Source: Pseudomonas phage Persinger
Direction: 5' to 3' (one strand)
DNA length: 44,033 nucleotides
Sequence record: MT613935.1
The first letter of the stretch is position 1. Every line of letters starts with the position of its first letter. The translations under genes were made by a program, and so were the position numbers. Shown here piece by piece: positions 556 to 42,496 of this stretch. The notes under the pieces were generated by a model. That model was not told where the DNA came from, searched no databases, and saw only the letters and a program-made list of their open reading frames with translations.

Positions 556-2582
556 CCGCCCTTGCGCCCAGCAACCGATTTTGAGCGCTTAATAGTGGGC
601 TTAGTCTGTGGGCGCGTGGCCTTCTGTTCCTCTTGTGGGATTTCCGCAGGCTTGTTGTCGTTGGCTGGCCGCTGCGGCTTTTGCTGCGGCTTGGGCGTTG
701 GCGCCGGCAGCTCGCGCGCCTTGCCATCGTCCGGCATCGCGTAGCGCTCGGCGAGCCGTTTAAACGATGGATTCATGATCTTGAGCGCGGCGAGCGCGTA
801 CACGCGGCAGTCCAGACCTTCGTTCCGTGCGCGGTCTGGCTTGTGCCACTCGCGCACAGGCTGGCCCTTAACGTACCTGGTGACCAGCTTTTCGGAAGTT
901 ATTTGCTTGTACCAGTCCGCATCGCGGTCGCTCGGCGTGTGGCAGTAGCCAGGACCGCCGGTCTTTTCTTCGGCGCCCACGGTGGCCGCCAGACGGCGCA
1001 TGACCACCAGCTTGGCTTCGTCGGTGCCGACCAGGAACAGGTCCACTTTCCTGGCGCGTTTTCCCGACTGCTTGCGCTGCGGCTTCTCGACAATCGGACG
1101 GCCCCAGCCGGACACGCCCTTGCCGGCGAACAGGCGCCGGCCAGTCCTGCCTTTGGCGTAGTCGTAGGCCGCCTGGGTCATGCCGTTGGTGCCGCCGGTA
1201 TCCAGCAGGGCGGCGCTGATTGGCATGATGGCGCCGCTTTCGTGCTGGTAGGTGGACGCCAGCAGGTCGTCCAGGTCGTCCCATACGTCCTGGTGCAGAG
1301 GGTCGCCCCACAGCACGTAATAGCCGATGGACCACGATTCCTCACCGACGCCCCAGGCGACCACTTCGCATTCCAGGCGGTCCATCTGCATGTCGATGCC
1401 TGCGGTAAGGTACAGGCCACCGGCCGGAACCTCGGCGCGGTATTCCTCGGCGCGTCCCTGCAGGCTGTTCGGGTCTGCCTTCTCGCCCTTCTCAGCGTAG
1501 GTCAGCGCCAACGACACGTTGACGAACGACTGCAGGTCGTCCAGCGCCAGCTTGTCCAGGTACGACTGCACGATATCGCGCAGACGGCGGAACGTTGAAA
1601 GCATTTCAGGTGCATGGAAGCTGGCGTGCCCTTTGAACGGCTTGGTCGCCTTCCAGCCGTGGCCAAGGCGCTCGGCGTTGCGGATCGCGGCCACGCGCTC
1701 GCCGTCATCCCATCCGACGCCGCAGCCTTCGCAGTGATAGTGCGCAGTGCCGGGGTCGTGTTCCTGGTCCTTGTCTTTTTCGGCGTCGTCTATGCCGGTG
1801 GAAACGCGACCCGACCAGGACACGTTTTCCCATCGCAGGTGCTGGGCGTGACCGCAGTGCGGGCACGGCACGTAGTAGCGGCGCTGGTCGCCTTCGTTGA
1901 ACGCCGTTTCAATGCGGCTGGCGCCTTCGATGGTCGGCGTGCTGGACTCGGTACGCAGCGCATCGTCGCCGAAGGACGCTGAACGCTGCGCCAGCAGCTC
2001 GCCTGGGTCGCCTTCTGGCGTAGCTTCGAATCCGTCGATTTCGTCGGCCTGGGTTACCGGCGCCGAGCGGCCCCGCAGTGTCTTTGGCGAACCAGCCCAG
2101 CTGAACATCAGCCAGCCGCCGATATACGAAATGATGCGGCTGTTGTTGACGCCCTCGCGGCCCCGCTGCTTGGCCATCTTGCTGCTGATGGCCGGGTTGG
2201 CGTCCAGCATCGGGCGCAGCTTCGTTTCCAGGAACGTCTGCACGTCGCCCTGCGTCGGCTGAACCAGGATTTGCGAGCGCGGCTCATGCTCGATGAAATA
2301 GCCGGTGACGCACTGCTGGACGGTGGTTTTCCCCAGCTGCGCGCCGGTCATGTACGACACGCGGCGCACGCCTGGTTCCTTGATGGCGTCCAGCATGCCG
2401 CGCTGATAGGGTGCGTTGGCGAACCGGATCGGACCCGGCTTCGCGTTGCCCACTGGAATGCGCACGTTCTTTTCGGCCCACACGCTCGGAAGCATGTCGG
2501 GCGGTGGCACCAGGTTCTGCGCAGCGCGTCGGGTGGCAGCGATGACGGCGGCGCGGTTGCTGAACTGCACCACGTCAGCCAT
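537..2582 (-). CDS. Terminase large subunit, lambda gpA family
   Basis: 681-aa ORF with recognisable GpA-family sequence throughout (ATPase N-terminus, nuclease C-terminus). Low-complexity Pro/Gln/Lys C-terminal tail contains ANDNK and EIPQEE (the 19-bp repeat). Overlaps the small-terminase stop. Confidence 0.85.
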   Translation of the reverse strand: MADVVQFSNRAAVIAATRRAAQNLVPPPDMLPSVWAEKNVRIPVGNAKPGPIRFANAPYQRGMLDAIKEPGVRRVSYMTGAQLGKTTVQQCVTGYFIEHEPRSQILVQPTQGDVQTFLETKLRPMLDANPAISSKMAKQRGREGVNNSRIISYIGGWLMFSWAGSPKTLRGRSAPVTQADEIDGFEATPEGDPGELLAQRSASFGDDALRTESSTPTIEGASRIETAFNEGDQRRYYVPCPHCGHAQHLRWENVSWSGRVSTGIDDAEKDKDQEHDPGTAHYHCEGCGVGWDDGERVAAIRNAERLGHGWKATKPFKGHASFHAPEMLSTFRRLRDIVQSYLDKLALDDLQSFVNVSLALTYAEKGEKADPNSLQGRAEEYRAEVPAGGLYLTAGIDMQMDRLECEVVAWGVGEESWSIGYYVLWGDPLHQDVWDDLDDLLASTYQHESGAIMPISAALLDTGGTNGMTQAAYDYAKGRTGRRLFAGKGVSGWGRPIVEKPQRKQSGKRARKVDLFLVGTDEAKLVVMRRLAATVGAEEKTGGPGYCHTPSDRDADWYKQITSEKLVTRYVKGQPVREWHKPDRARNEGLDCRVYALAALKIMNPSFKRLAERYAMPDDGKARELPAPTPKPQQKPQRPANDNKPAEIPQEEQKATRPQTKPTIKRSKSVAGRKGGWVKSW
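627..645 (-). repeat. 19-bp late element copy A (TTCCTCTTGTGGGATTTCC on + strand)
   Basis: Lies in the terminase 3' tail (read as EIPQEE), 72-90 bp upstream of the gpW-like start (555). Confidence 0.8.
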
Positions 2583-3096
2583 CTGAATCAGCCTCTTCGT
2601 CGTCTTCGTCGTCCAGGTTCAGGTCGGCTTCGGCGGCAGTCTCCAGCGCCAGCGTCAGTTCCTCGCGCAGCTTCGCCTTGAAAATGATTTCATCAGTCTC
2701 TCCCAGCAGCTGCAGCACCGCGCGCGCCGGCACCTGCATGACGTTGGCGCGAATGGCGGCCATCAATGCGGCGGTGGCGCGTTCGAACTCGCGAACCGGC
2801 GCCACGTCGCCTTTCGCCTTGGCCACTTCCAGTTCGGCCCGCTCGGCTTCGGCGGCGAGCTTGCGGCGCTTCAGCTGGTTTTCATCCGCCAGGGTGGTGC
2901 CGCTACCTTCCTCGCGCGCCTTCTCCCGAAGGAACGCTGCGACCTCGGCTGAATTGAATTCGCTAGCGACGCCGCGCTGACCTTTCTTTACAGGGCAACC
3001 AGCACGAACCCAGGCGTCAACGGTCGGCGGAGTGACGCCGAAAAACTCGGCGCACTCGCCACGGTTCAGGGTTTGGCCCTTGCCTTTGCTCGCCAT
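2575..3096 (-). CDS. Terminase small subunit, Nu1-like (N-terminal HTH, acidic C-terminus)
   Basis: 173 aa. N-terminus TLNRGECAEFFGVTPPTVDAWVRAGCPV is a Nu1-type winged HTH. Coiled-coil middle, acidic DDEDDEEADSDG tail. Immediately upstream of and overlapping the large terminase. Confidence 0.6.
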   Translation of the reverse strand: MASKGKGQTLNRGECAEFFGVTPPTVDAWVRAGCPVKKGQRGVASEFNSAEVAAFLREKAREEGSGTTLADENQLKRRKLAAEAERAELEVAKAKGDVAPVREFERATAALMAAIRANVMQVPARAVLQLLGETDEIIFKAKLREELTLALETAAEADLNLDDEDDEEADSDG

Positions 3097-3260
3097 AAAT
3101 TTCCTTGATTGATAGCACTTTGCTAATCAAAAAACTTGATTTGAAACGGCACGCAGATGTGAAGTTTCGCGGAGTGTCTGCCCCCGCATGGCATCGGCCG
3201 CCCGGAAGGACCCGTCGATGAGAATTTTTCTCATTGTCAAGTGCCATTCGTCGGCTCCCG
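3097..3260. promoter_or_regulatory. Putative cos / packaging-recognition and late-promoter region upstream of Nu1
   Basis: Non-coding stretch 5' of the small terminase gene. TTGATT...AATCAA inverted repeat (3105-3130), a third TTGATTTGAAACGG copy (3135-3149), an A-tract, and the ATGAGAATTTTTCTCAT palindrome (3218-3234). Lambda-type cos lies immediately upstream of Nu1. Confidence 0.3.
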
Positions 3261-3278
3261 ACAGACGGTCACGCACCA

Positions 3279-3800
3279 TCATGGTGCGCCCCTCACGCTG
3301 TCATAGGCCGCTTCACACGCTAGCCCCCTTGCCCTGGCCTGGTCAGCAACTGCAGCCAGGTGGCCCGCCGCTTGGTCAGCCCGCTTGAACACGTCGGCAA
3401 GCACTCGGGCGTACTCGGCAGCTGCCTTGCTTGCGGCGGTAGTGCAGGCACTGCGGCCGGCTTCACTGTCTGCCAGTCGGGCGGCGAGCTGGTCGGCTGC
3501 GTCGCGCAGGCTGCCAGCAGTGGCAGCAGCATCAGCGGCATCAGCTGCCGCACGGTCGATTTCACGCTGTGCATCTTGGGTCACCTTGTCGATGGATTGC
3601 TGGCGCATGGCCTCGATAGCGCGCTGTTCGGCCTGTGCCTGAGCGGTGGCCTTGGCATCGGCCGCCAGGTGCGCTTCCCACTTGGCCTTCCAGGTGTTGT
3701 CAGTCGCGCCCTGACCATTCCAGTAACCGGCCGTGTAGATGGCGAGCGCGGCCACCAGGGCAGCGATGGCGCGCCAGTGCTTCAGTGCCCAGGCCATCAT
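3279..3800 (-). CDS. Rz-like i-spanin
   Basis: 173 aa with an N-terminal TM helix (WRAIAALVAALAIYTAGYW) followed by Ala/Gln/Arg-rich coiled coil. Start ATG overlaps the endolysin stop (ATGA). Last gene of the lysis cassette. Confidence 0.6.
   Translation of the reverse strand: MMAWALKHWRAIAALVAALAIYTAGYWNGQGATDNTWKAKWEAHLAADAKATAQAQAEQRAIEAMRQQSIDKVTQDAQREIDRAAADAADAAATAGSLRDAADQLAARLADSEAGRSACTTAASKAAAEYARVLADVFKRADQAAGHLAAVADQARARGLACEAAYDSVRGAP
3320..3574 (-). CDS. Rz1-like o-spanin lipoprotein, embedded in Rz in a different frame
   Basis: MHSVKSTVRQLMPLMLLPLLAAC: signal peptide with LAAC lipobox, followed by a Pro-rich body (PTSSPPDWQTVKPAAVPALPPQ). Fully nested within the Rz ORF. Start could also be the internal Met (3541). 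Confidence 0.5.
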   Translation of the reverse strand: MHSVKSTVRQLMPLMLLPLLAACATQPTSSPPDWQTVKPAAVPALPPQARQLPSTPECLPTCSSGLTKRRATWLQLLTRPGQGG

Positions 3801-4279: not shown

Positions 4280-4285
4280 GGTCGA

Positions 4286-4576: not shown

Positions 4577-4902
4577 TATTCGCCGCCTCCAGTCTTGCCG
4601 ATCTTCGCTTTGACCAGCGAAATCAGGTCAAGGTTCTTGATGGCGCGAAATCCAGCAGCCAGCAGCGAACCGCCGAACGCACCCAGCAGGAAGCCGACGC
4701 TACCAGCCAGGCCGGGGTCGATGCTGTAAGCGCTGATGGCCCAGGGAGTGCCCCAATAGGCGCAGGCCACGCCAGTGCATACGAACCACGCACGCCCGCC
4801 CCAGCCGCTCAGTTCCTCTTGGAACTTCAGCGCGACCAGGGCGCCAATGAAGCCGGCGATGATGGCCTTGTCGGTGTTCAGTAGCCGTTCCAGGAAGTCC
4901 AT
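4576..4902 (-). CDS. Holin
   Basis: 108 aa with three predicted TM segments, Gly/Ala-rich (IIAGFIGALVALKF..., FVCTGVACAYWGTPWAISAY, GSVGFLLGAFGGSLLAAGF), charged C-terminus. First gene of the lysis cassette. Confidence 0.5.
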   Translation of the reverse strand: MDFLERLLNTDKAIIAGFIGALVALKFQEELSGWGGRAWFVCTGVACAYWGTPWAISAYSIDPGLAGSVGFLLGAFGGSLLAAGFRAIKNLDLISLVKAKIGKTGGGE

Positions 4903-5408
4903 CAGCGGCGGACCTGTTTGCGGGTGATGGGTTGCATGGTTGCCGACCTCTGAAGTGATGATGGCGGATTGTTATCGTTCGCTGCCTTGGCATCCTCTTG
5001 TGGGATTTCCCGCAGCAGGTTTCGAACGTGACGGTCAGACACGCCCAGCAGCTCGGCGATGGCATCAGGCTTCATTCCCTCGCGTGCCATGCGGATTGCC
5101 GACTGGTCACGGAATCGCCTGTAAATCTCTGCGCAGCTCGCCGGCTGCAGAATCTCGCCACCGAACGCATCGACCAGGCGCTTGGCGTCGTGCCATCCAA
5201 GGATGCGCACCAGGCTGTCGTCAGGCTTCAATCGCTTGGGCACGTACATGATGACCCGGACGCCGCGCTTGCTGGTCTTTCCGTCGCGGCCATAGGACTT
5301 TGCGCCATCGACGCCCGCATAGCACCTTGGCAGCTGCCCGATCAAGTATAACGCGCGCTCACGCCCAATAACGTCCGCTATCTCCTGTGCGCTCGCAGGT
5401 AATTGCAC
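4902..5408 (-). CDS. Mor/C-family transcriptional activator (candidate late-gene activator)
   Basis: Core resembles Mu Mor. LVRILGWHDAKRLVDAFGGEILQPASCAEIYRRFRDQSAIRMAREGMKPDAIAELLGVSDRHVRNLLR ends in the C-terminal HTH. The ORF reads on through EIPQED (19-bp repeat copy B) and AANDNN before stopping. Confidence 0.55.
   Translation of the reverse strand: MQLPASAQEIADVIGRERALYLIGQLPRCYAGVDGAKSYGRDGKTSKRGVRVIMYVPKRLKPDDSLVRILGWHDAKRLVDAFGGEILQPASCAEIYRRFRDQSAIRMAREGMKPDAIAELLGVSDRHVRNLLREIPQEDAKAANDNNPPSSLQRSATMQPITRKQVRR
4992..5010 (-). repeat. 19-bp late element copy B (18/19 match, ATCCTCTTGTGGGATTTCC)
   Basis: Lies in the 3' tail of the Mor-like gene (read as EIPQED), 90-108 bp upstream of the holin start (4902). 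Confidence 0.75.
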
Positions 5409-5822: not shown

Positions 5823-5837
5823 CGGGTTGTTGCTGTT

Positions 5838-30005: not shown

Positions 30006-30006
30006 T

Positions 30007-31440: not shown

Positions 31441-31507
31441 TTGTTTGGGCCTCGATAGACGCGGGTTTGTGAATCGTGCCGGAATGGTCGCAGGCTGGCG
31501 GTCGCCG

Positions 31508-31526
31508 TTCCTCTTGTGGGATTTCC
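31508..31526 (-). repeat. 19-bp late element copy C (intergenic)
   Basis: Sits between the terminator (31531-31556) and the sheath start (31440), 68-86 bp upstream of the ATG. Confidence 0.8.
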
Positions 31527-31530
31527 AGGC

Positions 31531-31556
31531 ATAAAAAGACCGCCCCGAAGGGCGGT
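31531..31556 (-). terminator. Rho-independent terminator after the fiber module
   Basis: ACCGCCC-CGAA-GGGCGGT, followed on the minus strand by CTTTTTAT. Confidence 0.7.
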
Positions 31557-31574
31557 AAGCAGGCGTGCGGTCGA

Positions 31575-32213: not shown

Positions 32214-32413
32214 ACACTGGCGCCTCCATCGGCTACCTGGGTCCATTTCGTTCCGTTCCAGCGTCGGCGATGCCCTGCCTTCGCCATCGGCGGTTTGCGA
32301 GTGATGCATCCGGCAGGAATCTGCCAGGTGCCGTCCTTCAGCTTGTCGGCGGTGGCGGGTCCGACAAGGAACCCGTCAGCATCCAGCTGGTAAACCTCTT
32401 TCGATTCGCTCAT
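32210..32413 (-). CDS. Tail fiber assembly chaperone (gpG-like)
   Basis: Start at Met 32413 (MSESKEVYQLDADGFLVGPATAD...) overlapping the fiber stop. Small protein immediately downstream of the fiber gene. Confidence 0.45.
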   Translation of the reverse strand: MSESKEVYQLDADGFLVGPATADKLKDGTWQIPAGCITRKPPMAKAGHRRRWNGTKWTQVADGGASV

Positions 32414-32417
32414 GTCG

Positions 32418-33818
32418 TTACGCCTTGATGCAATACAGCAGTGCCACGTTACGCGGGCGGGTTTCGGTGGCAAACGTGCCGATACTGCCGTTGTTGTCGA
32501 AGGTCACAGCGATTTCGCCAGATGCCGGGTTAGCGTTTGCGCCACCCTTCTGCCAAGCGCTGTCAGGAATGGTCCAAGTGTTTCCGGCCTCTGCGCTGGA
32601 AGTCGGAAGATAGTGGTTGTGCTGCTGCAGAGCATGCCCCTGGTTGCTGCCCAGCAGGCGCCCGCTATCCACGCCTCGCCCATCGTCCAGGCCACGGATG
32701 AATTCGCCGCGCAGGTCCGGCAGGTTGAACGTCGTGGACCCGTCGCCAGCGCCGAACGTGGTTCCGATGGCAGCGAACAGCGCGTTGTAAGTGGTCCGGT
32801 TCACTGCGGCGCCATTGCACCTCAGCCATCCCAGCGGCGGCGTGCTGCGCGCGAATGCCTGGACAGCTCCCGCCGGGGTAAGGATTGCGCCGATGTTCTT
32901 GATGTACTGCGCCAGCACGTCAACGGCAGGAACGCGCCCAGTGTCAGTTCCAGCGGTCAGTTCGTCCAGGGTCGCCAGTTCCACCAGTCCGCGCACCGTG
33001 GTGGATGCGCCAGCGATACCGTCCAGCGCGTCGTTCTGGTATGCGTGGATGATAGAGCCAGCCGGGTGCGATTCCGCCAGCGTGATCTGCGCAGCGCCGG
33101 TCACGTTGTAGTCAACGGTTTCAATCAGGCGCACGCCCTCGATGTAAACCGCAATGCCGTTGGCCTGGATAGTGGCGAAGTTCACGACGGTTTGACCGGA
33201 GGCGAGCGTCTGCCGCTCCGGCTTCACGTCAACGATTACGTCAACGGCGGCGTTCGGGTTCACCCATTTGAAATCTTCGTCCGTGTTGCTGTTCTTGGCC
33301 AGCACCTGGCCAGCCAGACCGCCGGCCACCTTGCTGCGCAGCAGGAACTGGCTGACCACCCACTGACGCGATGCCAGGACAATGCTGGGGTCGATCTTCA
33401 GTTGCACCACCGAAGCGTTCGACACTTCGATGATGACGCGCACTACCAGGTCGCGGGTGGCGCCTTCGGACAGCTGCGGCTTGTAGGTTTCCGGGAAATT
33501 GCCGACCGCGAGCAACTGGCCGTCAACGTCGTACAGGCCGACTTCGCGCACGGTCCAGCCGCCAACGTCGGACGGCACCACCAGCTCGGCGATGACGTAA
33601 TTGGGATTCGCCGGGTCCGTACTCAACTGGTTGAGCTGCGCGCGGTAGACCTGGCGCACCAGGCCGGTCTGCGACTGGCTGGGCGTGGTCGGGTTGCCGT
33701 TGCCGTCGCCCAGCGCCATTTCGGTGACCTGGATTTGCTGGCCGAGCGCAACGGCGTTGGCGATTTTCGCCTGGCCGATGCTGGTAAGAATCGTGAAGAA
33801 TGCCATTCTGTCCACCAA
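32418..33818 (-). CDS. Tail fiber protein (gpH-like N-terminus, C-terminal collar domain)
   Basis: 466 aa. N-terminal DUF3751-like fiber attachment region (MAFFTILTSIGQAKIANA...). C-terminal TTFNLPDLRGEFIRG collar domain. Confidence 0.7.
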   Translation of the reverse strand: MVDRMAFFTILTSIGQAKIANAVALGQQIQVTEMALGDGNGNPTTPSQSQTGLVRQVYRAQLNQLSTDPANPNYVIAELVVPSDVGGWTVREVGLYDVDGQLLAVGNFPETYKPQLSEGATRDLVVRVIIEVSNASVVQLKIDPSIVLASRQWVVSQFLLRSKVAGGLAGQVLAKNSNTDEDFKWVNPNAAVDVIVDVKPERQTLASGQTVVNFATIQANGIAVYIEGVRLIETVDYNVTGAAQITLAESHPAGSIIHAYQNDALDGIAGASTTVRGLVELATLDELTAGTDTGRVPAVDVLAQYIKNIGAILTPAGAVQAFARSTPPLGWLRCNGAAVNRTTYNALFAAIGTTFGAGDGSTTFNLPDLRGEFIRGLDDGRGVDSGRLLGSNQGHALQQHNHYLPTSSAEAGNTWTIPDSAWQKGGANANPASGEIAVTFDNNGSIGTFATETRPRNVALLYCIKA

Positions 33819-33827
33819 TCAGTTGGA

Positions 33828-35525
33828 TTATTGCCGTGCCAGGATTTCGCAGACCGCAGCAATGTTGGTCGCTGCCGCCCCCGCGTCGTTGCCTGCAATG
33901 GTGAAGCGAAGAGTTGCAGGCGCAATCGCAGCAAGGCTGGTCGTTACTGCAGACGCCCCGCTGTTCGCCGTCCTGGTAACGGTCTGGTTCTTGATCGAAA
34001 GCTGACCAGAGGCGTTAACCGACAGCGCCACGGTGAATTCGTCCACGAACATGGCGCTGGCGCCGCTCACGGTGACAGAACCCACCAGGTAGAACTTGGC
34101 GAAAAAGTCGCAAGGTCCGAGCATATGACCCAGCATGGTTCGCGTGGTCATCGTAACAGTCTGTCCAAGGGACACGTTAGAAACAGTGAACTTTTCGCCG
34201 GTTACGATTGCGATTCCCTGCGTGCCGAACTGCTGCACATATCCGCCGTTCACCTTGACACGCGGAATGCGAGCAAAGTTCGTCGGGACAGACAGCAGTT
34301 TTCCGCGACCAGGCACAAGGTCCATCCAGTCCTGGTTCACCTCGATTTCCACGCCATCCAGCGTGCCTTGCGAAACCGGAACTATGGTGCCTGGTCCAGC
34401 AATCTGGTGCTTGATCTCGAAGGCGGTAGGGTCTTGCTTGGTGCCAGCGAAAAGCAGCGCGCTGACACGAACCCCGCGAATGACCATGGCCGAACTATTC
34501 ACGCCTTCGTCTGCGGTGAAACCGATCAGCGCGGGCGCATACCAGTTCGCTTTAATCAGGCGAGCATTGATGTTCGTGGTAGCCGGCCCGACGCCGTAAT
34601 TGGTGACGATGAAATCATTTGTGCTGACGTACTGGTTCAGGCTGAAAATCAGCACGTCATGGTTCGACACGCCATAGACGAAATACGCTCGGCGGTGGCC
34701 ACTCGACACGCAGCGGCCACGCAGCTGGTCGCCGTTGTTTGCGCAGTTGATGCCGTAATAGCAATCGTAGGTGACGACATCCACTTTTACGTCGGAAATG
34801 CGCCACGAATGGTTCGGATTGGTGGTCGGATCGGACTGAATGGTCACCAGCGACTGGCAGTTATACGCCTTGCCTACCACGACATAGCCGGACGTGTGCT
34901 TTTCCTTCGCAAAGAAGTTGAACGCTACCAGCCCACGGTTCGGGTCTACATCGACCGGCTTCAGGTTCCTGATAACGAAATTCAGGGCGACGCACGGCGT
35001 GTCGTAGAACCGATGGACGACGCCAGACGCAGGCGCGGCAATGTCGAAAATCAGTTCTGCGCCGTTGTAGTCGATGACCATCGGCTTGCCATGGCTCACC
35101 TGCACGCCGTAGGCCGGCAATACGCCCAGGTAGTATTTCTTGCCGGGGCTTGCTCGGAACTGCGTTTTACCGGAAGTCAGCATGGCCCGATATGCTGCCT
35201 GGTTGTCGGTGCCACGGTTGTTCTGGTCCACGTAGTCGCCGACCATTCCCCAGTCTTCGAAGGTTTCGAAGTCGTCGCCCAGGCGATCAATGATCTTGTT
35301 CAGCTCGCCGCCAATGGTGCCGTCTGCGTATGGCTCCGAAGCCAGGAAGCCTACCAGGCCGGCCCCGCCCGAACTCGCCAGGTCGGATGCCAGCGTGTCG
35401 TCGAAACCAGGCAGCAGGTCCATGACGCGCACCTGGCGGCTGTTTCCGCCCTGCTCCAGCTCCAGGATTTCCTGACCAGTCAGCGGCAGGGCGGCGCCCT
35501 GCAAATCGTTTATTCTCCAGCCCAC
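33828..35525 (-). CDS. Tailspike-like protein, probable beta-helix (candidate depolymerase)
   Basis: 565 aa between gpI and the fiber. Repetitive beta-strand-rich body with many N/G/V/T periodic segments. No collar motif. Confidence 0.45.
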   Translation of the reverse strand: MGWRINDLQGAALPLTGQEILELEQGGNSRQVRVMDLLPGFDDTLASDLASSGGAGLVGFLASEPYADGTIGGELNKIIDRLGDDFETFEDWGMVGDYVDQNNRGTDNQAAYRAMLTSGKTQFRASPGKKYYLGVLPAYGVQVSHGKPMVIDYNGAELIFDIAAPASGVVHRFYDTPCVALNFVIRNLKPVDVDPNRGLVAFNFFAKEKHTSGYVVVGKAYNCQSLVTIQSDPTTNPNHSWRISDVKVDVVTYDCYYGINCANNGDQLRGRCVSSGHRRAYFVYGVSNHDVLIFSLNQYVSTNDFIVTNYGVGPATTNINARLIKANWYAPALIGFTADEGVNSSAMVIRGVRVSALLFAGTKQDPTAFEIKHQIAGPGTIVPVSQGTLDGVEIEVNQDWMDLVPGRGKLLSVPTNFARIPRVKVNGGYVQQFGTQGIAIVTGEKFTVSNVSLGQTVTMTTRTMLGHMLGPCDFFAKFYLVGSVTVSGASAMFVDEFTVALSVNASGQLSIKNQTVTRTANSGASAVTTSLAAIAPATLRFTIAGNDAGAAATNIAAVCEILARQ

Positions 35526-35527
35526 GG

Positions 35528-36223
35528 CTATGCCCCTATGGTTCGTAGTTGTCCGCCAGTCGTGACGCGGAATTGTCCGTCCGTTGTCGTCCTGGCAATC
35601 AGTTCATCCGGCACCCAGCCTTGCGGGTAGACGGCGGTGGTTGTTACGTCCTGGCTCGCCGATCCGAAGAACAGCTGGCCGATGTTTTCCAGCTCGCGCA
35701 GCTGGTACGGGTAAACCGTCGTGTCCACGCCTTCGACCAGCGCGGCGCCTGCGTACACGGTGCCGCGCACGTCGGCTTTGACGGTCAGGGCGCGCAGGTG
35801 CGAACGCAGGTTCTTGTAAGTCAGCACGATGCGCTCGGCTTTTGCGTACAGCTCGGCGGTTACCGGCTTGCTGCCTGTGCCCATCACGATACTGAACGTG
35901 TACGGGTCACCTGGCGGGGTCATTTCCCACCACTCGATAACCTCGATCAGATAGCCCAGGGGCTTCAGCGCGCGGTCAATGGCGCCGATTGTGCCCTTGT
36001 GCTTGTGCACGTCCAGACTGGCCTTGATGACCTCGCGCTTTTCCTGCTCGGTCCAGGTCGTATCCCATTCGTCCACGCTGAACGCCCAGGCGAGCCACGG
36101 CAGCAGCTCGGCTGGGCAGGTGTCGGGGTTCCACGACTCGCGAACCAGAACCGGCACGTCGGAAACGCGAGCGATGGCCTCGGCCAGTGCGCGTTCCTGC
36201 GCCGTGGCGCTCGGCGGCAGCAT
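35528..36223 (-). CDS. Baseplate/tail protein I (gpI)
   Basis: Start at Met 36223, 4 nt after the gpJ stop. gpI-family sequence. The track's longer N-terminus overlaps gpJ. Confidence 0.65.
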   Translation of the reverse strand: MLPPSATAQERALAEAIARVSDVPVLVRESWNPDTCPAELLPWLAWAFSVDEWDTTWTEQEKREVIKASLDVHKHKGTIGAIDRALKPLGYLIEVIEWWEMTPPGDPYTFSIVMGTGSKPVTAELYAKAERIVLTYKNLRSHLRALTVKADVRGTVYAGAALVEGVDTTVYPYQLRELENIGQLFFGSASQDVTTTAVYPQGWVPDELIARTTTDGQFRVTTGGQLRTIGA

Positions 36224-36227
36224 GTCG

Positions 36228-37127
36228 TTACTCACCAGTGCCACCCACGGCAATGGTAGTCCCGGTGCACCATGCGGCCTGGTCCCAGTTTGCCACAACG
36301 CTGGCGGTCGGCGCGGCTAGGGTGACGTTCTGGACGCCTTCCTGGTGCAATGCCGCGTACAGTCCCGACAGGGTAACGTCGCGCCCCAGGCGGTGGTTAT
36401 TCTCCACGTAGGCGTCCAGTGCGGCCTGCGCGTTGGCAACCACCACGTCGGCGTCCGGCCCAGGATACAGGGTCAGGGTAGCGCTGACGGTGTACGGCAG
36501 GATTTCGGCCGACTTGACCAGCACCTGGTCGGTCAGCGGGCGCACGTCGTCGGCGCTCAAGGTCGCGTCTACGGCGTCCAGCAGGTCGGACGGCGCGGTT
36601 CCGTCGCCGATGTTGGACAGCACGGCGACCACCACCTGGCCAGGGACTGGGCTGTGCGCGCTCGCGTCCAGCACGCGCGCGTCGGCGCCGAGTGAATGGA
36701 AGATGTAGGCGCCTTCCGGCCCTGCGGTGCTGAATCCTTCGAACGACAGTTGGACTCGGCGGCGCAGTGCGTCGTCGGATTCCAGAACGGCCGGCGTCGG
36801 CGGCACGGTGGTGTCGTCTGCCGGGGTGATGACCAGGCGCTGGACGTTGTAGCGCGCCGCGATCTGGTCCAGGTCGCTGCCCATGGCATAGGCCAGCGTC
36901 ACGCCCTTGATGGCTTCGTTGACGCGCTGGCGCAGCAGGACTTCGCGGAACGCGCAGACCTCCAGCACCTTATAGGCCGGGTCACTCTCCACCAGCGCGG
37001 AAAACGCAGGGTCGCGCGTCTGCAGGTCGGCAATCATCGCCGCCAGGATGACTTCGAAATCCAGGTTTTCGACAGCTGCCGGGAATGGCAGCTTGGAAAG
37101 GTCCACCGCCGTGAATGCGCCTGCCAC
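36228..37127 (-). CDS. Baseplate assembly protein J (gpJ)
   Basis: 299 aa, Baseplate_J-family sequence, follows gpW. Confidence 0.8.
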   Translation of the reverse strand: MAGAFTAVDLSKLPFPAAVENLDFEVILAAMIADLQTRDPAFSALVESDPAYKVLEVCAFREVLLRQRVNEAIKGVTLAYAMGSDLDQIAARYNVQRLVITPADDTTVPPTPAVLESDDALRRRVQLSFEGFSTAGPEGAYIFHSLGADARVLDASAHSPVPGQVVVAVLSNIGDGTAPSDLLDAVDATLSADDVRPLTDQVLVKSAEILPYTVSATLTLYPGPDADVVVANAQAALDAYVENNHRLGRDVTLSGLYAALHQEGVQNVTLAAPTASVVANWDQAAWCTGTTIAVGGTGE

Positions 37128-37475
37128 TTATTCCACCACTATGCCGTCAAGGGTGATTGTTTGGCCGTCCGGCAGATACTCGCCGGTAAGGTCCAGTTCG
37201 ATGCGGCCGGGTTCTGCTGCCACGGCCTGCACCTGGTCCAATCTGAAACGGGGTTCCCAGCGCTCCAGCGCCTCGGCTACGGCCGCGTACACGTCCAGCA
37301 GCGTGGAACGGTTCATCGGGGCATCTATCAGCCGCATCAGCCGGCTGCCGTACTCGCGGCGCATCACGCGGCTGCCAATGGGCGTCCGTAGAATGTCGCG
37401 GATGGATTGCCGCAGATGCTGCAGGCCGCCCAGGCGCTTACCGTTCGATGCGTTGATGCCGTCCATGCGCGCCAT
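37128..37475 (-). CDS. Baseplate assembly protein W (GPW/gp25 family)
   Basis: 115 aa. SIRDILRTPIGSRVMRREYGSRL is typical of gp25/W. Confidence 0.75.
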   Translation of the reverse strand: MARMDGINASNGKRLGGLQHLRQSIRDILRTPIGSRVMRREYGSRLMRLIDAPMNRSTLLDVYAAVAEALERWEPRFRLDQVQAVAAEPGRIELDLTGEYLPDGQTITLDGIVVE

Positions 37476-37497
37476 TCTGCTGGGCAGGGCGTGGCGC

Positions 37498-37516
37498 TTC
37501 CTCTTGTGGGATTTCC
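37498..37516 (-). repeat. 19-bp late element copy D (intergenic)
   Basis: Sits between the PAAR stop (37518) and the gpW start (37475), 23-41 bp upstream of the ATG. Confidence 0.8.
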
Positions 37517-37517
37517 G

Positions 37518-37793
37518 TCAGTCAGGAATGCGGAACCAGGGTCGGCCGGTCGATGCGTGACCGCAGTTCGCCAGGTGCCCTTCTCGACAGACTGGGGTTC
37601 CGTTTAAACGCATCCACCCGGAACCCTGCGCCATGACCGGCGCCGTATGCGGGGGGATGGGCGGCGGGTGCGGCGTCACAGGATCACCCAGCAGGACGAC
37701 TGGCTGACCCTCGACGTTGAAGAACGACTGCCCACCCGCGAGCTGTGCGCCCTCGGCCGCGTCAAGCGCCTTCACGGCTATGCCGAAACTCAC
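37518..37793 (-). CDS. PAAR-like spike-tip protein
   Basis: 91 aa. GDPVTPHPPPIPPHTAPVMAQGS...NGTPVCREGHLANCGHAS resembles PAAR-repeat cone proteins. Sits between V and W. Confidence 0.45.
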   Translation of the reverse strand: MSFGIAVKALDAAEGAQLAGGQSFFNVEGQPVVLLGDPVTPHPPPIPPHTAPVMAQGSGWMRLNGTPVCREGHLANCGHASTGRPWFRIPD

Positions 37794-38260
37794 GACTGCA
37801 CGCCCTCGAACTGCGGCGTGGTCAGGGTGGTGCCGTCCGCGCGCAGCTCCAGCGTGGTGGCGCCGATCTTGAAAACGATTTTCCCGCCGGCCGGCACTTC
37901 CAGGGTGAACGTGTGGCTGGCGCTGTTGTAGTCCTGGCGCGCGCCGTCAGGGTAGACGGTGGTTTCCTGGTCCTTGCTGGCGGCCGGCGCTGGGCTGTCA
38001 TCTTGGAACAGCGACCCGATGACGACGGCCTGCGCCATGTCGCCATAAGGCGATGCGATCACCACCTGCTCGCCCACCTGCGGCGGGGACCACTGGCGCG
38101 TCTTGCCGGCGCGAGCGGCGCCCCACGGCAGCCAGTCCGTGGTCAGGCCGGCGGTGCTGACCTTCACGCGGGCGTTCGCTTCGTCCAGCTCGGCAACCTT
38201 GCCGACGCGCACCAGGTTGGCCAGCTGGCGCCCCAGCTCGCCCAGCTCGTATTCGCTCAT
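37790..38260 (-). CDS. Baseplate spike protein V (gpV)
   Basis: 156 aa. gpV-family (VGKVAELDEANARVKV...GEQVVIASPYGDMAQAVVIG). Confidence 0.75.
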   Translation of the reverse strand: MSEYELGELGRQLANLVRVGKVAELDEANARVKVSTAGLTTDWLPWGAARAGKTRQWSPPQVGEQVVIASPYGDMAQAVVIGSLFQDDSPAPAASKDQETTVYPDGARQDYNSASHTFTLEVPAGGKIVFKIGATTLELRADGTTLTTPQFEGVQS

Positions 38261-38829
38261 TCGTCCACCTGCTCGTATCCGTCGCCAGGGTTTCCATTGA
38301 CGTGGCCCTGCACGAACACGTCGGCCGGCGTCTCGCCTTCATCGGTCCACACGGTCTTGCCCAGGTGGACGATTTGCTGCCACTCGACGCGCCAGATTTC
38401 GAACTGCTCCAGCGCCTGGTCGCGCTGGTGACCCATCACCGAAAAGTCGTCCTGATAGGCGCCGATGACCTCGGCGGGTCCGGTGGGAAGTTTCGGGGTT
38501 GTGCCGCTGTAGTTCGTCCAGCGGCGCTTGCGCAGCCAGGCGGCGAGCGCGGCGGCCAGCAGGCGGATGGACTGCTTGGCCTTCGGCGTGCGGAAGCTGA
38601 TAACCAGTTCGGCTTCGAACTTCGCCATGACGGCCAGCTGCTCGGTGCCTGGGTCTTCGTCTGGCAGCGCCTCCAGCTCGGTCAGCTCAAGCAGGCAGGC
38701 CGGCTTCGGCAGTTCCTTTCGGTCCTCTCGGTAAAACTCGACGGTGACCAGCTGCGGAAACTGCGCCTTGATATCGGCCACGATGGCGTCGTGCAGCACG
38801 CCCAGGTCCACTTCGGTGTTCGCATTCAT
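38257..38829 (-). CDS. Tail completion / virion morphogenesis protein (gpS-like, tentative)
   Basis: 190 aa immediately upstream of V, the position of P2 gpS. No strong motif. Confidence 0.3.
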   Translation of the reverse strand: MNANTEVDLGVLHDAIVADIKAQFPQLVTVEFYREDRKELPKPACLLELTELEALPDEDPGTEQLAVMAKFEAELVISFRTPKAKQSIRLLAAALAAWLRKRRWTNYSGTTPKLPTGPAEVIGAYQDDFSVMGHQRDQALEQFEIWRVEWQQIVHLGKTVWTDEGETPADVFVQGHVNGNPGDGYEQVDE

Positions 38830-39389
38830 CAGGATTCACCCAGCTGGAATTTCACACGCGCGCGCAGGTCGCGTCGGAAGTGCTGCCAGAAAATATCAAG
38901 CACCTGGTCGAAAATTTCATCTTCAATGAACGTAATTGCCTTGTCTTCGACGGCGTGCAGCTGCTCGGCGACAGGCAGGCGCGCTTCGCGCACGCGCTTG
39001 AAAATGGTTTGCTTGCCCTTCACCTTGCTGCGGCCGACGAACGCCCCGGCGTATTCCTCGCCACGGAACGACGCGCCGTCGTTGGTGTTCTTCGGGCGCC
39101 CCTTGAAGCTCGATACGGGCAGGTCATTCAGGCCGTACCACAGCCCCATCGACTGGTCGCGCGAACCTATCGCGCTCATGCGCATGCGAATTGATTTCAG
39201 GCGCTTGCGAAGGGCGCCAGCGGCACGCAGCTGCAGAACCTTGGTCAGCCCCTTGGACGACATGCGCCGCAGGGTTGCTTCCGTGCGGCGCATGGCGCGC
39301 GACAGCGCGAAGATGACCTGCTTGTCGGTGGCTTGCAGTTCATCGCCAACGGTCAGCAGCTGGTTCCAGTCGATATCAAAGTGCAGCAT
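38829..39389 (-). CDS. Tail completion protein (gpR-like, tentative)
   Basis: 186 aa, position of P2 gpR. Confidence 0.3.
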   Translation of the reverse strand: MLHFDIDWNQLLTVGDELQATDKQVIFALSRAMRRTEATLRRMSSKGLTKVLQLRAAGALRKRLKSIRMRMSAIGSRDQSMGLWYGLNDLPVSSFKGRPKNTNDGASFRGEEYAGAFVGRSKVKGKQTIFKRVREARLPVAEQLHAVEDKAITFIEDEIFDQVLDIFWQHFRRDLRARVKFQLGES

Positions 39390-39708
39390 CTTGGCGCGCC
39401 ATCGTTACCAGTGCCCAGCCGGTTCCATCGGCCTGCGGACTGGTCAGAACGTCGAAGGTTTCGCCGGCCACGGTCACCACGTCGCCACGTCGAACGCCGG
39501 CCAGGTCGGTTTCCTTGCCGCTGATGCGCGGTTCGCTGGTGTCCGCTTCGTACTCGCCCAGCTCGGCGTTCAGATACGGGTCATCAAACAGCACGCTGAT
39601 GGTCCTGGTGCCGCCGTCCTGAAACTGGATGACGGCGGGCGTTGCAAACCCGCCGTCATCATCCAGCTGCAGGAATTCGTCCAGGTTTTCCCAGGACGGC
39701 CCGCGCAT
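39376..39708 (-). CDS. Head-tail joining/adaptor protein (tentative)
   Basis: 110 aa acidic protein downstream of the head genes. Confidence 0.35.
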   Translation of the reverse strand: MRGPSWENLDEFLQLDDDGGFATPAVIQFQDGGTRTISVLFDDPYLNAELGEYEADTSEPRISGKETDLAGVRRGDVVTVAGETFDVLTSPQADGTGWALVTMARQDAAL

Positions 39709-40064
39709 CAGCTGTACTGCTTGCGGCCGACCAGGTGGACGCTGCGGACCACGGAAGTGGCGCCGCCGGCCAGGGTATCGACCACGCGAACGAATTTCAG
39801 CAGGCGGTCAGCATTGATCATCAGCGACTGTTCGGACGCTGCGGTGCCGACAGCGGCGAACGCACCACCCGGAACATCGGTCCAGCCGGTGCTGCCGTCA
39901 GCGCTGTGCTGCAGCTTGATGGTGTCGGTGCCGGCGTTGGTGGCGCCAGCGTTCAGCACCAGCAGGGCAATGCCCTGATAGTCGCCGACGTTGACGGCAG
40001 CGCCGTTGCCGGTCGCGGTGATGCTGGCAGCTACGTCCAGCGCGGTTGCGGATACGCCACGCAT
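39708..40064 (-). CDS. Hypothetical virion protein (118 aa, Gly/Ala/Thr-rich)
   Basis: Position after capsid. Possible decoration or connector protein. Confidence 0.3.
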   Translation of the reverse strand: MRGVSATALDVAASITATGNGAAVNVGDYQGIALLVLNAGATNAGTDTIKLQHSADGSTGWTDVPGGAFAAVGTAASEQSLMINADRLLKFVRVVDTLAGGATSVVRSVHLVGRKQYS

Positions 40065-40066
40065 GG

Positions 40067-40381
40067 TTATTTAGCCTCGCTGTGCTTGGCTTCGATGGCT
40101 TCGACCAGCTCGGCTTTGTTCATGCCGGCGGCGCCTTCGATGCTGAGTTTTTCGGCCAGGTCCAGCAGCTGAGCTTTGTTCAGCTTGGACAGGTCGGTGG
40201 TGTCTTCGTCGTCGCTTTCGGCTACCGGCGCGCCGTCTTCGGCAGTGGCCAGCCGCGCCTTGCCGCGAGCCAGCAGGTTCTCGGCTTCCCGCTCGCTGAC
40301 TTCCACCAGCGAATTGGCGCGGCAAATACCGCCGTCGATGGCAATGGCGCTGGTCAGCACCAGGAAAATGGATCGGCTCAT
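40067..40381 (-). CDS. Small protein with Rho-N/SAP-like HeH motif
   Basis: LSKLNKAQLLDLAEKLSIEGAAGMNKAELVEAIEAKH: HeH motif common in phage head-associated proteins. Confidence 0.4.
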   Translation of the reverse strand: MSRSIFLVLTSAIAIDGGICRANSLVEVSEREAENLLARGKARLATAEDGAPVAESDDEDTTDLSKLNKAQLLDLAEKLSIEGAAGMNKAELVEAIEAKHSEAK

Positions 40382-40400
40382 TTCTGCAGTTCCTCGGTTG

Positions 40401-40426
40401 TGAAGAAAAGGCCGCCGAAGCGGCCT
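40401..40426 (-). terminator. Rho-independent terminator after the capsid gene
   Basis: AGGCCGC-CGAA-GCGGCCT, followed on the minus strand by TTTCTTCA. Confidence 0.65.
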
Positions 40427-40438
40427 ATTCCTGGTGCC

Positions 40439-42496
40439 TTACGGGGTGACGGTCTGGCTGCCGTAGGCGATGGACTCGACGCGGCGCAGTGCCAGGTCGA
40501 TATCCTGGAAGACCACCACGCGCAGGCCGCCGGACTTGCTCAGGCTGTACGGGTCAACGGTCAGGTCCAGGCCGCCCCACAGGCCAATCAGCAGGTCGGC
40601 GAAGTTGCCGAAGAACACATCGCCGTTCTGCAGCTGGTTGGTGATTTCGGCGCGGTAGCCGTTCACGGTGCCGCCCGATTCCCAGATGGTGCCGCCGTCC
40701 ACGGCGTCCGGGAACTTGCGGTTGGTCTTCGCGTGACCACGGAACCGCGCGTTGGCCACATAGCCCATCTGGCCGATATCGGCGTTGTCGGCGGCGATTT
40801 CGGTTTCCATCTGCACCAGCTCGGCATAGGTCGGCCACAGGGCGGCGAAGTCCACGGCGTTGATGCCGGTGTAGTTCTTCAGGCCGCGCGGCTGGTTGCC
40901 GGTGCCGCTGCCGTAGTAGCCGGCCATGTCGATGGCTTGGCCGATGGCGTTCACCAGGTCACGGCGCACGATGCCTTCGGCGTCCGGGGTGGACTGCATC
41001 AGCAGGCGACGGGTCATGTCGGTGTAAGCCGCAACGGTCTTTGGCGACAGTTCCAGCTGGCCGATGGTCGGGGTGCCTTCGGTGGCGTCGTCACCCTCGC
41101 CGATCCAGTACGCGGTCGCGCCGCCGGTCTGCTTGGGAATATCCACGTTGCCGACCAGGCCGCCCATGCTGGTTCCCAGGCGCATCAGGGTGGTGCGATT
41201 GCGCAGCATTTCGATGAACGAACCGGCCATGAAGTCGGTCGCTACCAGGTTGCTGCCGGTCTGCGCGCCGGCCGGGGTGTTGCCTGCGCCGCCAGCGTTG
41301 AACGCACGGCTGCCCAGCACGTCTTCCGGCACCAGGATGCCTTGCGCGGTACGGCCGAGCTGGCGCTGGGCGGCTTCGCTGCACTCGATCTCGAACTTGG
41401 CGGCTTCGCGGTCCTTCTGGCTGGCGTTCGGCTGCAGGGCGCGAATGGCCTTGAACAGCGAATACTTCCGCACTTCCTTGTCGCTCAGGCCGATTTTCGG
41501 GTCAGCCATTTCCGACAGCGGGGTGCCGGAACGCTTGCCGTCCTGCTTGTTGGTGTCCACGCTGGTGACGCCCTTGGTGTTGATGTGGTCCAGGGCGGCG
41601 CGGGCGAATTCATCCACCGACTTGCCATCGGCCACGGCCTTGGCGGCCAGCTCGCGGCAGTCGTACTTCTCGCCCATTTCCAGGATGGAAGCGGTACGCT
41701 TGCGCTCGGCCTCGGCGGCGTTGCGCTGAGCGGCGCGAACGTCGGCGCCGGCCTCTTCCAGAACTTCCAGCACCTTGGTGATGCTGCCGTGTTCGTCCAC
41801 TTCGGCGCGGACCAGGTTGCCAGAGGCATCCCGCAGAACTTTGATTTTCATGTTTCTGATTTCCTCAGAGATAGGTTTTTCCGTGGCCGCGCCACTTCGG
41901 ACGGTCGCAGTTTGTGCGGCCTGCGCGGCGGGTTCCTCTTGTGGGATTTCCAGGTCGCGACCGATGCCCACGCTGTGGTCCGCCGGAACGCTGACGATGG
42001 AAATTTCGTAGGGTTCCCACTTGGTGATGCGGTACACGTCAACGTCGCCGCGCTGTTCGAACAGCACCGCGCGCAGGACGCGATAGCCGACCGAAACGTG
42101 CTTGCGGATTCCATCGACGATATCCTGGAAAATCTCGTCAGCGCGCGCGCTTCGCCCGAAACGCACGACAGCACGGCCCCGCCGGTCTGCGTCGATACTG
42201 ACAGATTCCACGACGCCCACCTGGTCGTCCCAGTCGTGGTTCACCAGCAGCGCGCCGCCATCGCTCAGGCGATCCAGCAGCACGCTGTCGGGGTCGTGGT
42301 CCAGAATTTCGATGCCAAACCAGCGTTCGACCTCTAATTCAGAGCTGAACGCCAGTTCAACGGTGCGCTTGTCCTTGTCGAAGCTGCGCACTTCCATGGT
42401 GCGTTGCAGCTGGCCCTTGCCGTTGAAATCAGGCAGTGCCTTGCTTTCGCTGGCGTCGCGGCGCAGATAGGCGCCGATCAGGTCACGCAGGTGCAT
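40439..42496 (-). CDS. Prohead protease (S78/HK97-type) - scaffold/delta domain - HK97-fold major capsid protein, single ORF
   Basis: 685 aa. N-terminal ~180 aa protease. Coiled-coil linker. C-terminal HK97-like MCP. Copy E of the 19-bp repeat and an internal RBS+ATG (41851) lie at the protease/capsid junction. Confidence 0.8.
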   Translation of the reverse strand: MHLRDLIGAYLRRDASESKALPDFNGKGQLQRTMEVRSFDKDKRTVELAFSSELEVERWFGIEILDHDPDSVLLDRLSDGGALLVNHDWDDQVGVVESVSIDADRRGRAVVRFGRSARADEIFQDIVDGIRKHVSVGYRVLRAVLFEQRGDVDVYRITKWEPYEISIVSVPADHSVGIGRDLEIPQEEPAAQAAQTATVRSGAATEKPISEEIRNMKIKVLRDASGNLVRAEVDEHGSITKVLEVLEEAGADVRAAQRNAAEAERKRTASILEMGEKYDCRELAAKAVADGKSVDEFARAALDHINTKGVTSVDTNKQDGKRSGTPLSEMADPKIGLSDKEVRKYSLFKAIRALQPNASQKDREAAKFEIECSEAAQRQLGRTAQGILVPEDVLGSRAFNAGGAGNTPAGAQTGSNLVATDFMAGSFIEMLRNRTTLMRLGTSMGGLVGNVDIPKQTGGATAYWIGEGDDATEGTPTIGQLELSPKTVAAYTDMTRRLLMQSTPDAEGIVRRDLVNAIGQAIDMAGYYGSGTGNQPRGLKNYTGINAVDFAALWPTYAELVQMETEIAADNADIGQMGYVANARFRGHAKTNRKFPDAVDGGTIWESGGTVNGYRAEITNQLQNGDVFFGNFADLLIGLWGGLDLTVDPYSLSKSGGLRVVVFQDIDLALRRVESIAYGSQTVTP
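41933..41951 (-). repeat. 19-bp late element copy E (in protease/capsid ORF linker, read as EIPQEE)
   Basis: 82-100 bp upstream of the internal Met (41851) that begins the scaffold/capsid portion. Confidence 0.8.

Follow-up and report, generated by a model that had tools for sequence, protein, structure and literature searches.

The genome of Pseudomonas phage Persinger (sequence record MT613935.1; the whole stretch of 44,033 nucleotides is referred to as the window) carries five nearly identical copies of a 19-nucleotide (nt) element, here called the box. On the coding (minus) strand the box reads GGAAATCCCACAAGAGGAA, on the plus strand TTCCTCTTGTGGGATTTCC. We wondered what the role of such an invariant sequence at five scattered places could be. 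The evidence presented here argues for five late promoters in which the 19-mer forms the upstream half, recognised by an activator, a reading that we estimate to be correct with a probability of about 0.78. Host RNA polymerase would fire these promoters only with a phage protein on the box, and the best candidate for this role is the helix-turn-helix (HTH) protein encoded at 4902-5408.

A search of both strands of the window re-found all the copies described in an earlier note on this DNA. Four of them (boxes A, C, D and E in Table 1) are perfect, with 0 mismatches, and box B has one, located at the last base of the coding-strand box (plus strand ATCC...). No further match was found on either strand at up to three mismatches. 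Chance expectation is 0, as no 19-mer match appeared in 100 dinucleotide-preserving shuffles. All five boxes are co-oriented with the minus-strand genes, and the next start codon is 71, 89, 67, 31 and 81 nt away from the 3' end of boxes A to E, respectively, within the 25-110 base pairs (bp) given previously. When the 200-nt flanks were aligned, shared sequence was limited to 18 bases (core 18-19 nt), so the element is short and self-contained rather than a fragment of some longer repeat. The copies lack extended flanking homology, which rules out both a mobile element and a duplicated segment.

Three copies are read in one frame as EIPQE(E/D), as had been noticed before, in the open reading frames (ORFs) of the terminase large subunit (537-2582), the activator and the protease-capsid fusion (40439-42496). 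The conserved feature could therefore be this peptide, acting as a protein motif. However, boxes C and D are intergenic, the chance probability of finding 3/3 copies in one frame is 1/9 with no frame holding a stop, and nucleotide identity reaches the wobble positions. We give the peptide next to no chance of being what is conserved.

We wondered if the same element also marks the same places in other phages. Six relatives from different host genera (PPpW-3, Mano, ep3, phiRSP, Mica and FoX2) were compared as whole genomes and screened for repeated k-mers with no prior model. In each of them, a 14-19-mer is repeated exactly five times on one strand and is absent from the other. The location of these copies is shared by all seven genomes, at five syntenic sites. 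One lies at the 3' end of the activator gene, ahead of the holin gene, and one in the 3' tail of the terminase large subunit gene, ahead of the head-tail joining gene; the third is in the linker joining the protease and capsid domains, the fourth directly before baseplate W, and the fifth follows a terminator hairpin and precedes the sheath gene. The element tracks predicted late operon starts in 6/6 relatives. Random orientation, which according to the earlier note would indicate chance or repeat debris, was not seen, the number of reverse matches in the seven genomes being 0.

The box sequence is genome-specific yet related. It reads GGCAAACCCACAAGAGGAA in PPpW-3, GGAAAAnCCGCAAGAGGAA in Mano, (T/G)GACAAACCCCAAGAAGAA in ep3, GGAAATCCCACCAAtGGAA in phiRSP, GGAAATCCCACGGGAGGAA in Mica and GGAAATTCCGGACATGGAA in FoX2 (the last form also written GGAAATTCCGGACATGG). 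Copies within one genome vary in concert while their flanks diverge freely, which is explained by one trans-acting, sequence-specific reader encoded in that genome. In all seven genomes the first box is directly preceded by the activator gene. A weight matrix built from the 35 sites (7 genomes x 5) recovers 5/5 sites in at least five, and by one count six, of the seven genomes and 2/5 in ep3, where the anchors are 1 nt out of register; scanning of both strands of the seven genomes revealed no additional site and no reverse match. In 25 further viral-contig loci, retrieved via the activator protein, there are 40 forward matches to the matrix versus 1 reverse match. These matches sit downstream of the activator at the expected spacing and include the additional variants GAAGAACCC..., GCAGAACCC... 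and GAAAAACCCCAAGAGG.

The alignment of the 35 sites shows flat information except for the box and a second peak at positions 38-43. This peak corresponds to xAxAAT (A39 in 31/35, A41 in 27/35, A42 in 25/35 and T43 in 31/35 sites), exemplified by GACAAT, CAGAAT, GAAAAT, CAGACT and CAAACT, and the hexamer resembling a -10 element is located exactly 18 nt downstream of the box in all seven genomes. In Persinger alone, 5/5 sites have NANNNT at that offset, whereas 0/20,000 random sets of five positions did so at any offset from 19 to 89. Judged by its sequence, the hexamer is a weak sigma-70 -10 element: its most conserved positions are A-11 and T-7, and there is a purine at +1 (position 50 of the alignment, the expected +1, is A-rich). 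With the hexamer at -12 to -7, the box would span approximately -49 to -31, with its centre at -40 relative to the predicted transcription start site (TSS). The location near -55 assumed in the earlier note by analogy with phage Mu C and P2 Ogr sites has thus to be abandoned. The same note had pointed to weakly similar sequence ending in CAG after boxes A and D; its CAG is retained, as the start of the -10 hexamers CAGACT and CAGAAT.

No -35 hexamer is present in the five predicted promoters; the bases at this position read AGGAAC, a 2/6 match to TTGACA. A consensus sigma-70 scan of 30000-44033, the part containing boxes C, D and E, called no full promoter there, as is expected for promoters lacking a -35 element. 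The box carries about 30 bits, which exceeds the need for uniqueness in a host genome. Its 3' block (positions 15-20, A-G-G-A-A-C/A), situated 17 nt from the -10, is conserved across hosts. A dyad-symmetry search in the seven box variants yielded at best 4-5 of 8-10 pairs, with centres differing by genome and none of them conserved.

These data also bear on readings in which the box is not part of a promoter. As an RNA-level element it could be a processing, antitermination or translational signal in long late transcripts, in line with the fact that all copies are on the transcribed strand, three of them within ORFs and one after a terminator. On the contrary, an Rfam search of the window and ten other box-bearing loci returned tRNAs only and no match for the box, which moreover shows neither flanking conservation nor self-complementarity. 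The conserved partner is a DNA-type -10 hexamer at fixed distance, and the ATG that follows this hexamer by 6-7 nt at baseplate W (see below) makes sense only for transcription initiation. A signal in RNA is thus very improbable. A DNA site unrelated to transcription (strand-specific nicks, replication or packaging signals, or mobile-element repeat debris) is scarcely plausible either. Short strand-specific repeats do mark nick sites in some phages, but the positions of the box are tied to gene-cluster starts in seven genomes, its -10 partner is fixed, flanking homology is lacking, and the PhageTerm-predicted cohesive ends of Mano and Mica lie elsewhere. The comparative evidence (synteny, concerted variation, fixed -10, strict orientation and adjacency of the activator gene) speaks for the earlier proposal of a DNA-level signal that marks late transcription units and would be bound by the activator encoded at 4902-5408. 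Positions of the boxes and of associated features are listed in Table 1.

Table 1. Boxes, predicted promoter elements and associated features of the Persinger window
Feature	Position	Strand	Remarks
Box A	627-645	-	predicted promoter in disordered C-terminal tail of terminase large subunit gene, ahead of head-tail joining gene (1-555)
-10 of box A, CAGACT	603-608	-	predicted TSS ~596 (A); ATG 555-553
Box B, GGAAATCCCACAAGAGGAT	4992-5010	-	predicted upstream element (-49 to -31) of the lysis promoter P_lys, in 3' end of activator gene, ahead of holin
-10 of P_lys, AACAAT	4968-4973	-	predicted TSS ~4961-4962; holin ATG 4902-4900
Box C	31508-31526	-	intergenic; predicted promoter of sheath, tube and tape-measure genes
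-10 of box C, GACCAT	31484-31489	-	predicted TSS ~31477 (A); sheath ATG 31440-31438
Box D	37498-37516	-	intergenic, begins 1 nt past stop of PAAR gene; predicted promoter of baseplate W/J/I and tail fibre genes
-10 of box D, CAGAAT	37474-37479	-	baseplate W ATG (37466-37464) 7 nt on, no Shine-Dalgarno sequence; predicted TSS ~37466 (A of the ATG)
Box E	41933-41951	-	predicted internal promoter, in linker between S78 protease and HK97-type capsid domains (gene 40439-42496)
-10 of box E, CAAACT	41909-41914	-	predicted TSS ~41902
Shine-Dalgarno sequence GAGGAA (41866-41861) and in-frame internal ATG (41851-41849)	41849-41866	-	
Intrinsic terminator hairpin and T run	31539-31556	-	ends baseplate/fibre unit, just upstream of box C
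Intrinsic terminator after capsid gene	40409-40426	-	
Putative late transcriptional activator gene, 168 amino acids (aa)	4902-5408	-	C-terminal HTH and FGGEILQP linker
ANDN copies	654-665, 4971-4982, 9078-9089, 13186-13197, 14570-14581	-	
ANDN copies	18888-18899, 21122-21133, 21463-21474	+	

The candidate reader of the box, the sole conserved one encoded beside the first box, falls into PHROG 836, 'late transcriptional activator' (E 4.7e-28). Its family comprises 565 members at E<=1e-3, its UniRef cluster is named 'Mor transcription activator domain-containing', and the family shares an invariant FGG-E-I-L-Q-P strand followed by a three-helix HTH. It is a small protein with a C-terminal TrpR-like HTH behind a conserved beta-strand linker, the latter corresponding to GGxQVYIP in Mor. 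By eye, the protein is collinear with Mu Mor and C, having a similar N-terminal helix motif and the linker GG-x-(V/I)-(Y/L)-(I/Q)-P; common to their HTH regions, again by eye, is RD..I followed by G...EL..(Y)G(V)(S/T)...V. An additional N-terminal segment of about 60 aa includes a low-confidence insert. Net charge is +6 for residues 1-82 and +4 for residues 83-168, whereas proteins of the Mor/C type have an acidic N-terminal half, which serves for dimerisation, and a basic C-terminal one. The family profile, when compared with PDB sequences, retrieved generic HTH/LuxR-type proteins and a designed repeat protein only, Mor and C not being among them.

To specify the relationship between the activator and its box, recognition helices were compared with box variants. 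Helices xRH(V/I)(R/K)N, SDRQVRN, SRRHVSN and SERMVSN occur with boxes starting GGAAA, VTGVRA with GGCAAA, ERTVKR with GACAAA, EQHVRF and VQHVRQ with GAAGAA, and RETVNA with GCAGAA. The comparison, which ignores phylogeny, is suggestive of helix classes tracking the variable 5' part of the box (positions 2-6).

Several observations weigh against the reading as activator-dependent promoters. The window activator has no match to Pfam Mor (PF08765) at E<=10; this domain is matched, weakly, by 3/6 (best E 3.3e-7) and 5/30 (best E 1.5e-4) homologues. Comparison of the family profile with Mu C and Mor by hhalign was not significant (probability <1%). The protein, postulated in the earlier note to be a Mor/C-type activator, shows remote kinship only, and we therefore regard it as a borderline Mor/C-like one and not as a proven member of the family. 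The covariation of helix and box was seen without phylogenetic control, and for the copy at the lysis promoter it is partly trivial because this box is encoded in the activator's own gene. Further, the dyad symmetry of Mor and C sites has no conserved counterpart in the box, and near-perfect identity of copies within a genome is unusual for activator sites. Finally, no box precedes the genes from the capsid terminator (40409) to PAAR, so that the transcription map is incomplete.

Some of these features could be accommodated if the box, or its 3' part AGGAA(C), were itself a -35-type element, with the activator serving as a sigma region 4 surrogate or with a host sigma factor similar to the extracytoplasmic function (ECF) type reading GGAAC. 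ECF -35 elements have the consensus GGAAC, which the 3' block, conserved across hosts and separated from the -10 by 17 nt, resembles. In addition, the box is asymmetric with a strict orientation, its near-identical copies resemble promoters of dedicated polymerases or sigma factors, and 13/30 family members match Pfam Sigma70_r4_2 weakly. However, the -10 is sigma-70-like (xAxAAT) and not ECF-like, the variable 5' block follows the phage and not the host, and the collinearity of the protein with Mor and C extends to the linker GG-x-(I/V)-(L/Y)-(Q/I)-P. Among the 30/56 candidate ORFs that were scanned against PHROGs or Pfam there is neither a sigma region 2 nor a gene for a phage RNA polymerase or sigma factor, and the ORFs outside this set are too small for a single-subunit polymerase. 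On balance, a -35-type element is an unlikely explanation, and activator-dependent promoters remain the preferred one.

The arrangement is reminiscent of several known systems. In Mu Plys, a 19-bp essential region containing an imperfect dyad extends from -52 to -34, C footprints -30 to -55, and there is a -10 without a -35 (PMC2582627). As in the C-dependent promoters of Mu (Plys, PI, PP and Pmom), host sigma-70 polymerase would be directed to a -10 without -35 by a site of about 19 bp near or upstream of -35; in both phages a few late promoters, predicted ones in Persinger, head the lysis, head and tail operons, and a gene for a small activator with C-terminal HTH is found directly upstream of the lysis promoter. 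In contrast to Mu sites, the Persinger box is asymmetric and directional with no imperfect dyad, it is about 3 bp nearer to the -10 (-49 to -31), its copies are nearly identical instead of following a loose consensus, and three of them lie within coding sequence. The activator differs by its remote relationship, its extra N-terminal segment and its non-acidic N-terminal half. Persinger itself does not belong to the transposing Mu-like phages; it has an integrase, a lambda-type terminase and a P2-type tail. Cryo-electron microscopy shows Mor and C as tetramers that touch a pair of neighbouring major grooves as well as sigma-70 region 4, the beta flap and the alpha C-terminal domain (bioRxiv 10.1101/2025.05.02.651988). 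Protein family and recruitment logic would be held in common with Mor and its promoter Pm, with the reservation that kinship is remote. As there is a single activator gene, no two-step cascade of Mor and then C is evident in Persinger. A Sphingopyxis prophage (locus L074, reverse-complement 2632-3399) has two tandem activator paralogues, which recall the Mor/C pair of Mu.

Ogr/B-dependent transcription in P2 and 186 likewise involves four to five late promoters in which a conserved upstream element replaces the -35. Ogr is, however, a zinc-finger protein without homology to the Persinger protein, and it recognises a TGT-N12-ACA dyad with its centre near -55. MotA-dependent middle promoters of T4 share with the Persinger promoters an asymmetric box, at about -30, which replaces the -35 and is combined with a sigma-70 -10. 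T4 MotA needs the co-factor AsiA; no homologue of either was found among the 30 scanned Persinger ORFs.

If the boxes function as proposed, late transcription would proceed in five units. The first would contain the lysis and terminase genes, the second the head-tail joining, portal and protease-capsid genes, the third scaffold/capsid from an internal start, the fourth baseplate W to tail fibres, and the fifth sheath to tail tip. Box C, which would head the fifth unit, directly follows a strong intrinsic terminator, and another terminator is found after the capsid gene.

Two of the promoters have peculiar downstream features. At baseplate W, the ATG is located 6-7 nt after the -10 in 7/7 genomes and is not preceded by a Shine-Dalgarno sequence; in Mano, annotators found no ribosome-binding site for this gene. 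Such a position is understandable only with a transcription start at, or adjacent to, the A of this ATG, and baseplate W thus appears to be translated from leaderless mRNA. In Persinger, the ATG of the ORF start at 37475 (MARMDG...) overlaps the -10 of box D. This start is probably wrong, the real one being that at 37466 (MDGINA...).

At the capsid site, the S78 prohead protease and the HK97-type capsid protein are fused in one ORF of 685 aa (40439-42496). An in-frame ATG with a Shine-Dalgarno sequence of the GAGG/GAAGG type follows the predicted transcription start by about 50 nt and is conserved in 7/7 genomes, in agreement with the internal capsid start suggested in the earlier note. The full-length protease-scaffold-capsid protein would be made from upstream transcripts, and a more abundant scaffold/capsid without protease, beginning MKIKVL..., from the internal promoter and start. 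We predict that these two nested products of the capsid gene provide built-in control of protease-to-capsid stoichiometry.

Box A resides in a different setting, the tail of the terminase large subunit. Past the nuclease domain, this tail comprises about 75 aa of low complexity (537-760) and hosts the ANDN motif (see below) together with the box. It ends with GGWVKSW, and all six relatives show the motif GxW(V/A)xxW at the same point, the predicted C-terminus of TerL. This marks the tail as genuine coding sequence, with a predicted promoter set in its low-complexity linker. This decides between the possibilities raised earlier, namely that such C-terminal extensions are real or that the stops of the genes were mis-called, in favour of the former.

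As regards the genome as a whole, the Persinger sequence is the complete genome of a temperate myovirus (about 44 kb, G+C 63%). The gene order on the minus strand begins with replication and early genes, followed by the activator gene (4902-5408), holins, endolysin and spanin, then a lambda-type terminase (Pfam GpA_ATPase and GpA_nuclease) and the head-tail joining gene (1-555). Past the window ends, it continues on the same strand with the portal gene, the fused S78 protease/HK97 capsid gene and head completion genes, and then with a P2-type baseplate (V, PAAR, W, J, I), fibres, sheath, tube and tape measure. The biggest ORFs encode the tape measure protein (788 aa), primase (757 aa), the protease-capsid fusion (685 aa) and terminase (681 aa). 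The record opens precisely at the junction of two genes (window 1-3 / 44031-44033), with the stop of the head-tail joining gene on one side and the start of the portal gene (42483-44033) on the other, and the transcription unit predicted for box A consequently crosses the window ends. The genome is circularly permuted with respect to PPpW-3. This Pseudomonas phage is the closest sequenced relative, with structural genes about 80% identical; remoter ones are Achromobacter phage Mano, Escherichia coli phages ep3 and ECOO78 (Jilinvirus), Ralstonia phage phiRSP, Burkholderia phage Mica and Xanthomonas phages FoX1-3. A tRNA gene (24958-25031, plus strand; Rfam 68.6 bits) adjoins the integrase gene (23400-24644, minus strand), and a tRNA, or a remnant of one, is also found at the matching position in Mano, Mica and FoX2. 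These are probably related to the attachment site.

Further, we examined the distribution of the box outside this set of phages. The exact 18-mer was found in 26 viral-contig stretches and in 40 stretches of bacterial genomes, about 17 of the 40 being expected by chance according to calculation. Related prophages with the box occur in Sphingopyxis (L074, with six exact copies on one strand) and Limnohabitans. Three Pseudomonas loci (L081, L083 and L086) display another organization, consisting of a primase-helicase gene, two tandem boxes, uncharacterised ORFs and the gene for the small terminase subunit (TerS; identified by PHROG in L083 and by eye in L081). The tandem boxes are different variants, GGAAATCCCACAAGAGGA and GGAAAAA(A/G)CCCAAGAGGAA, and are located at 3451-3534 in L083 (Pseudomonas baetica), 5482-5565 in L081 and 4809-4826 (minus strand) in L086. 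A correctly spaced -10 accompanies both boxes in L083 and the first box in L081 and L086, and a tRNA gene is found near the box in L083 and L086. Islands of this kind are those of P. baetica SMK4, Pseudomonas sp. 30_B and P. pseudonitroreducens BML-PP015. No activator homologue is present within 8 kb at any of the three loci, and in Pfam and PHROG scans of the ORFs by the box in the P. baetica island only primase and TerS were identified. In the P2/P4 system, satellites carry the late-promoter element in order to be switched on by the helper. The Pseudomonas primase-TerS islands may analogously be phage satellites switched on by the late activator of a Persinger-type helper, which we regard as a lead only.

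A more far-reaching interpretation, which we put forward tentatively and consider rather doubtful, is that the box represents a directional private promoter code of about 30 bits instead of a dyad of the Mor/C type. It would be read one-way by a Mor-derived protein that replaces -35 recognition and co-evolves fast with its five sites, and the same code, sometimes in two tandem variants, would wire activator-less, tRNA-linked primase-TerS islands to the late switch of their helper.

In some other loci, the exact 19-mer is accompanied by GTCGTGAC 0-30 nt downstream and sometimes also upstream. This was observed in L063 (2898), L076, L079/L092, L090, L091 and L098, with Pusillimonas, Candidimonas, Cellvibrio, Pseudomonas, Cupriavidus and Chromobacterium as hosts. 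Contexts of these pairs are unrelated (by an integrase or SRAP gene, or after a tail gene), and there is no Rfam match.

A second repeat, GCNAAYGAYAAY, is translated in frame as (A/S/V)-N-D-N, with x-P behind it in many cases. The window contains 12 copies, four of them found as AAYGAYAAY, and 6-15 matches in each of the six relatives, of which roughly 3-13 are in frame. The copies are in about 95% of cases in frame and co-oriented with genes. They occupy tails and linkers of non-homologous, mostly DNA-handling proteins: terminase, activator, primase, helicase, exonuclease, VRR-NUC, SSB, tape measure and a cytosine-methyltransferase-like ORF (named by eye; function unknown according to PHROG). 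NDN is the most over-represented tripeptide (12 observed versus 1.0 expected), while NEN and NDD are not enriched. The residue preceding NDN (Ala, Ser or Val) uses all its synonymous codons, which suggests a motif at the peptide level; however, C-ending codons of ANDN are somewhat over-used (94:10 versus 76% expected). Inspection by eye of the flanks of eight copies revealed no partner at a fixed distance downstream. The readings considered were a promoter, a Chi-like site, a primase site and parS, and, at the peptide level, likeness to ssrA. Proteobacterial ssrA tags begin AANDENY..., a start that ANDN resembles. In the lysis promoter, ANDN codons supply the -10 hexamer.

The phages concerned (Hiroshimavirus, Iiscvirinae/Jilinvirus, Manovirus, Micavirus, Foxunavirus and many prophages) have been described as a poorly characterised group (PMC11990801). 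In the literature searched, no published promoter map was found for this group, and searches with phage names and box sequences returned no description of these promoters, the sequence matches being unrelated primers. Activator-dependent late promoters are a well-known principle. Here, they give a testable map of late transcription for the whole group, with five predicted promoters per genome, a predicted leaderless baseplate mRNA, and an internal promoter and start by which the ratio of protease to capsid would be set. The annotation is corrected as well, with another start codon for baseplate W and with the terminase tail taken as genuine. Activators and their boxes also represent a natural set of variants for the study of how specificity evolves in a Mor-like family, and offer orthogonal, highly specific promoter-activator pairs for Pseudomonas, Burkholderia, Xanthomonas and E. 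coli.

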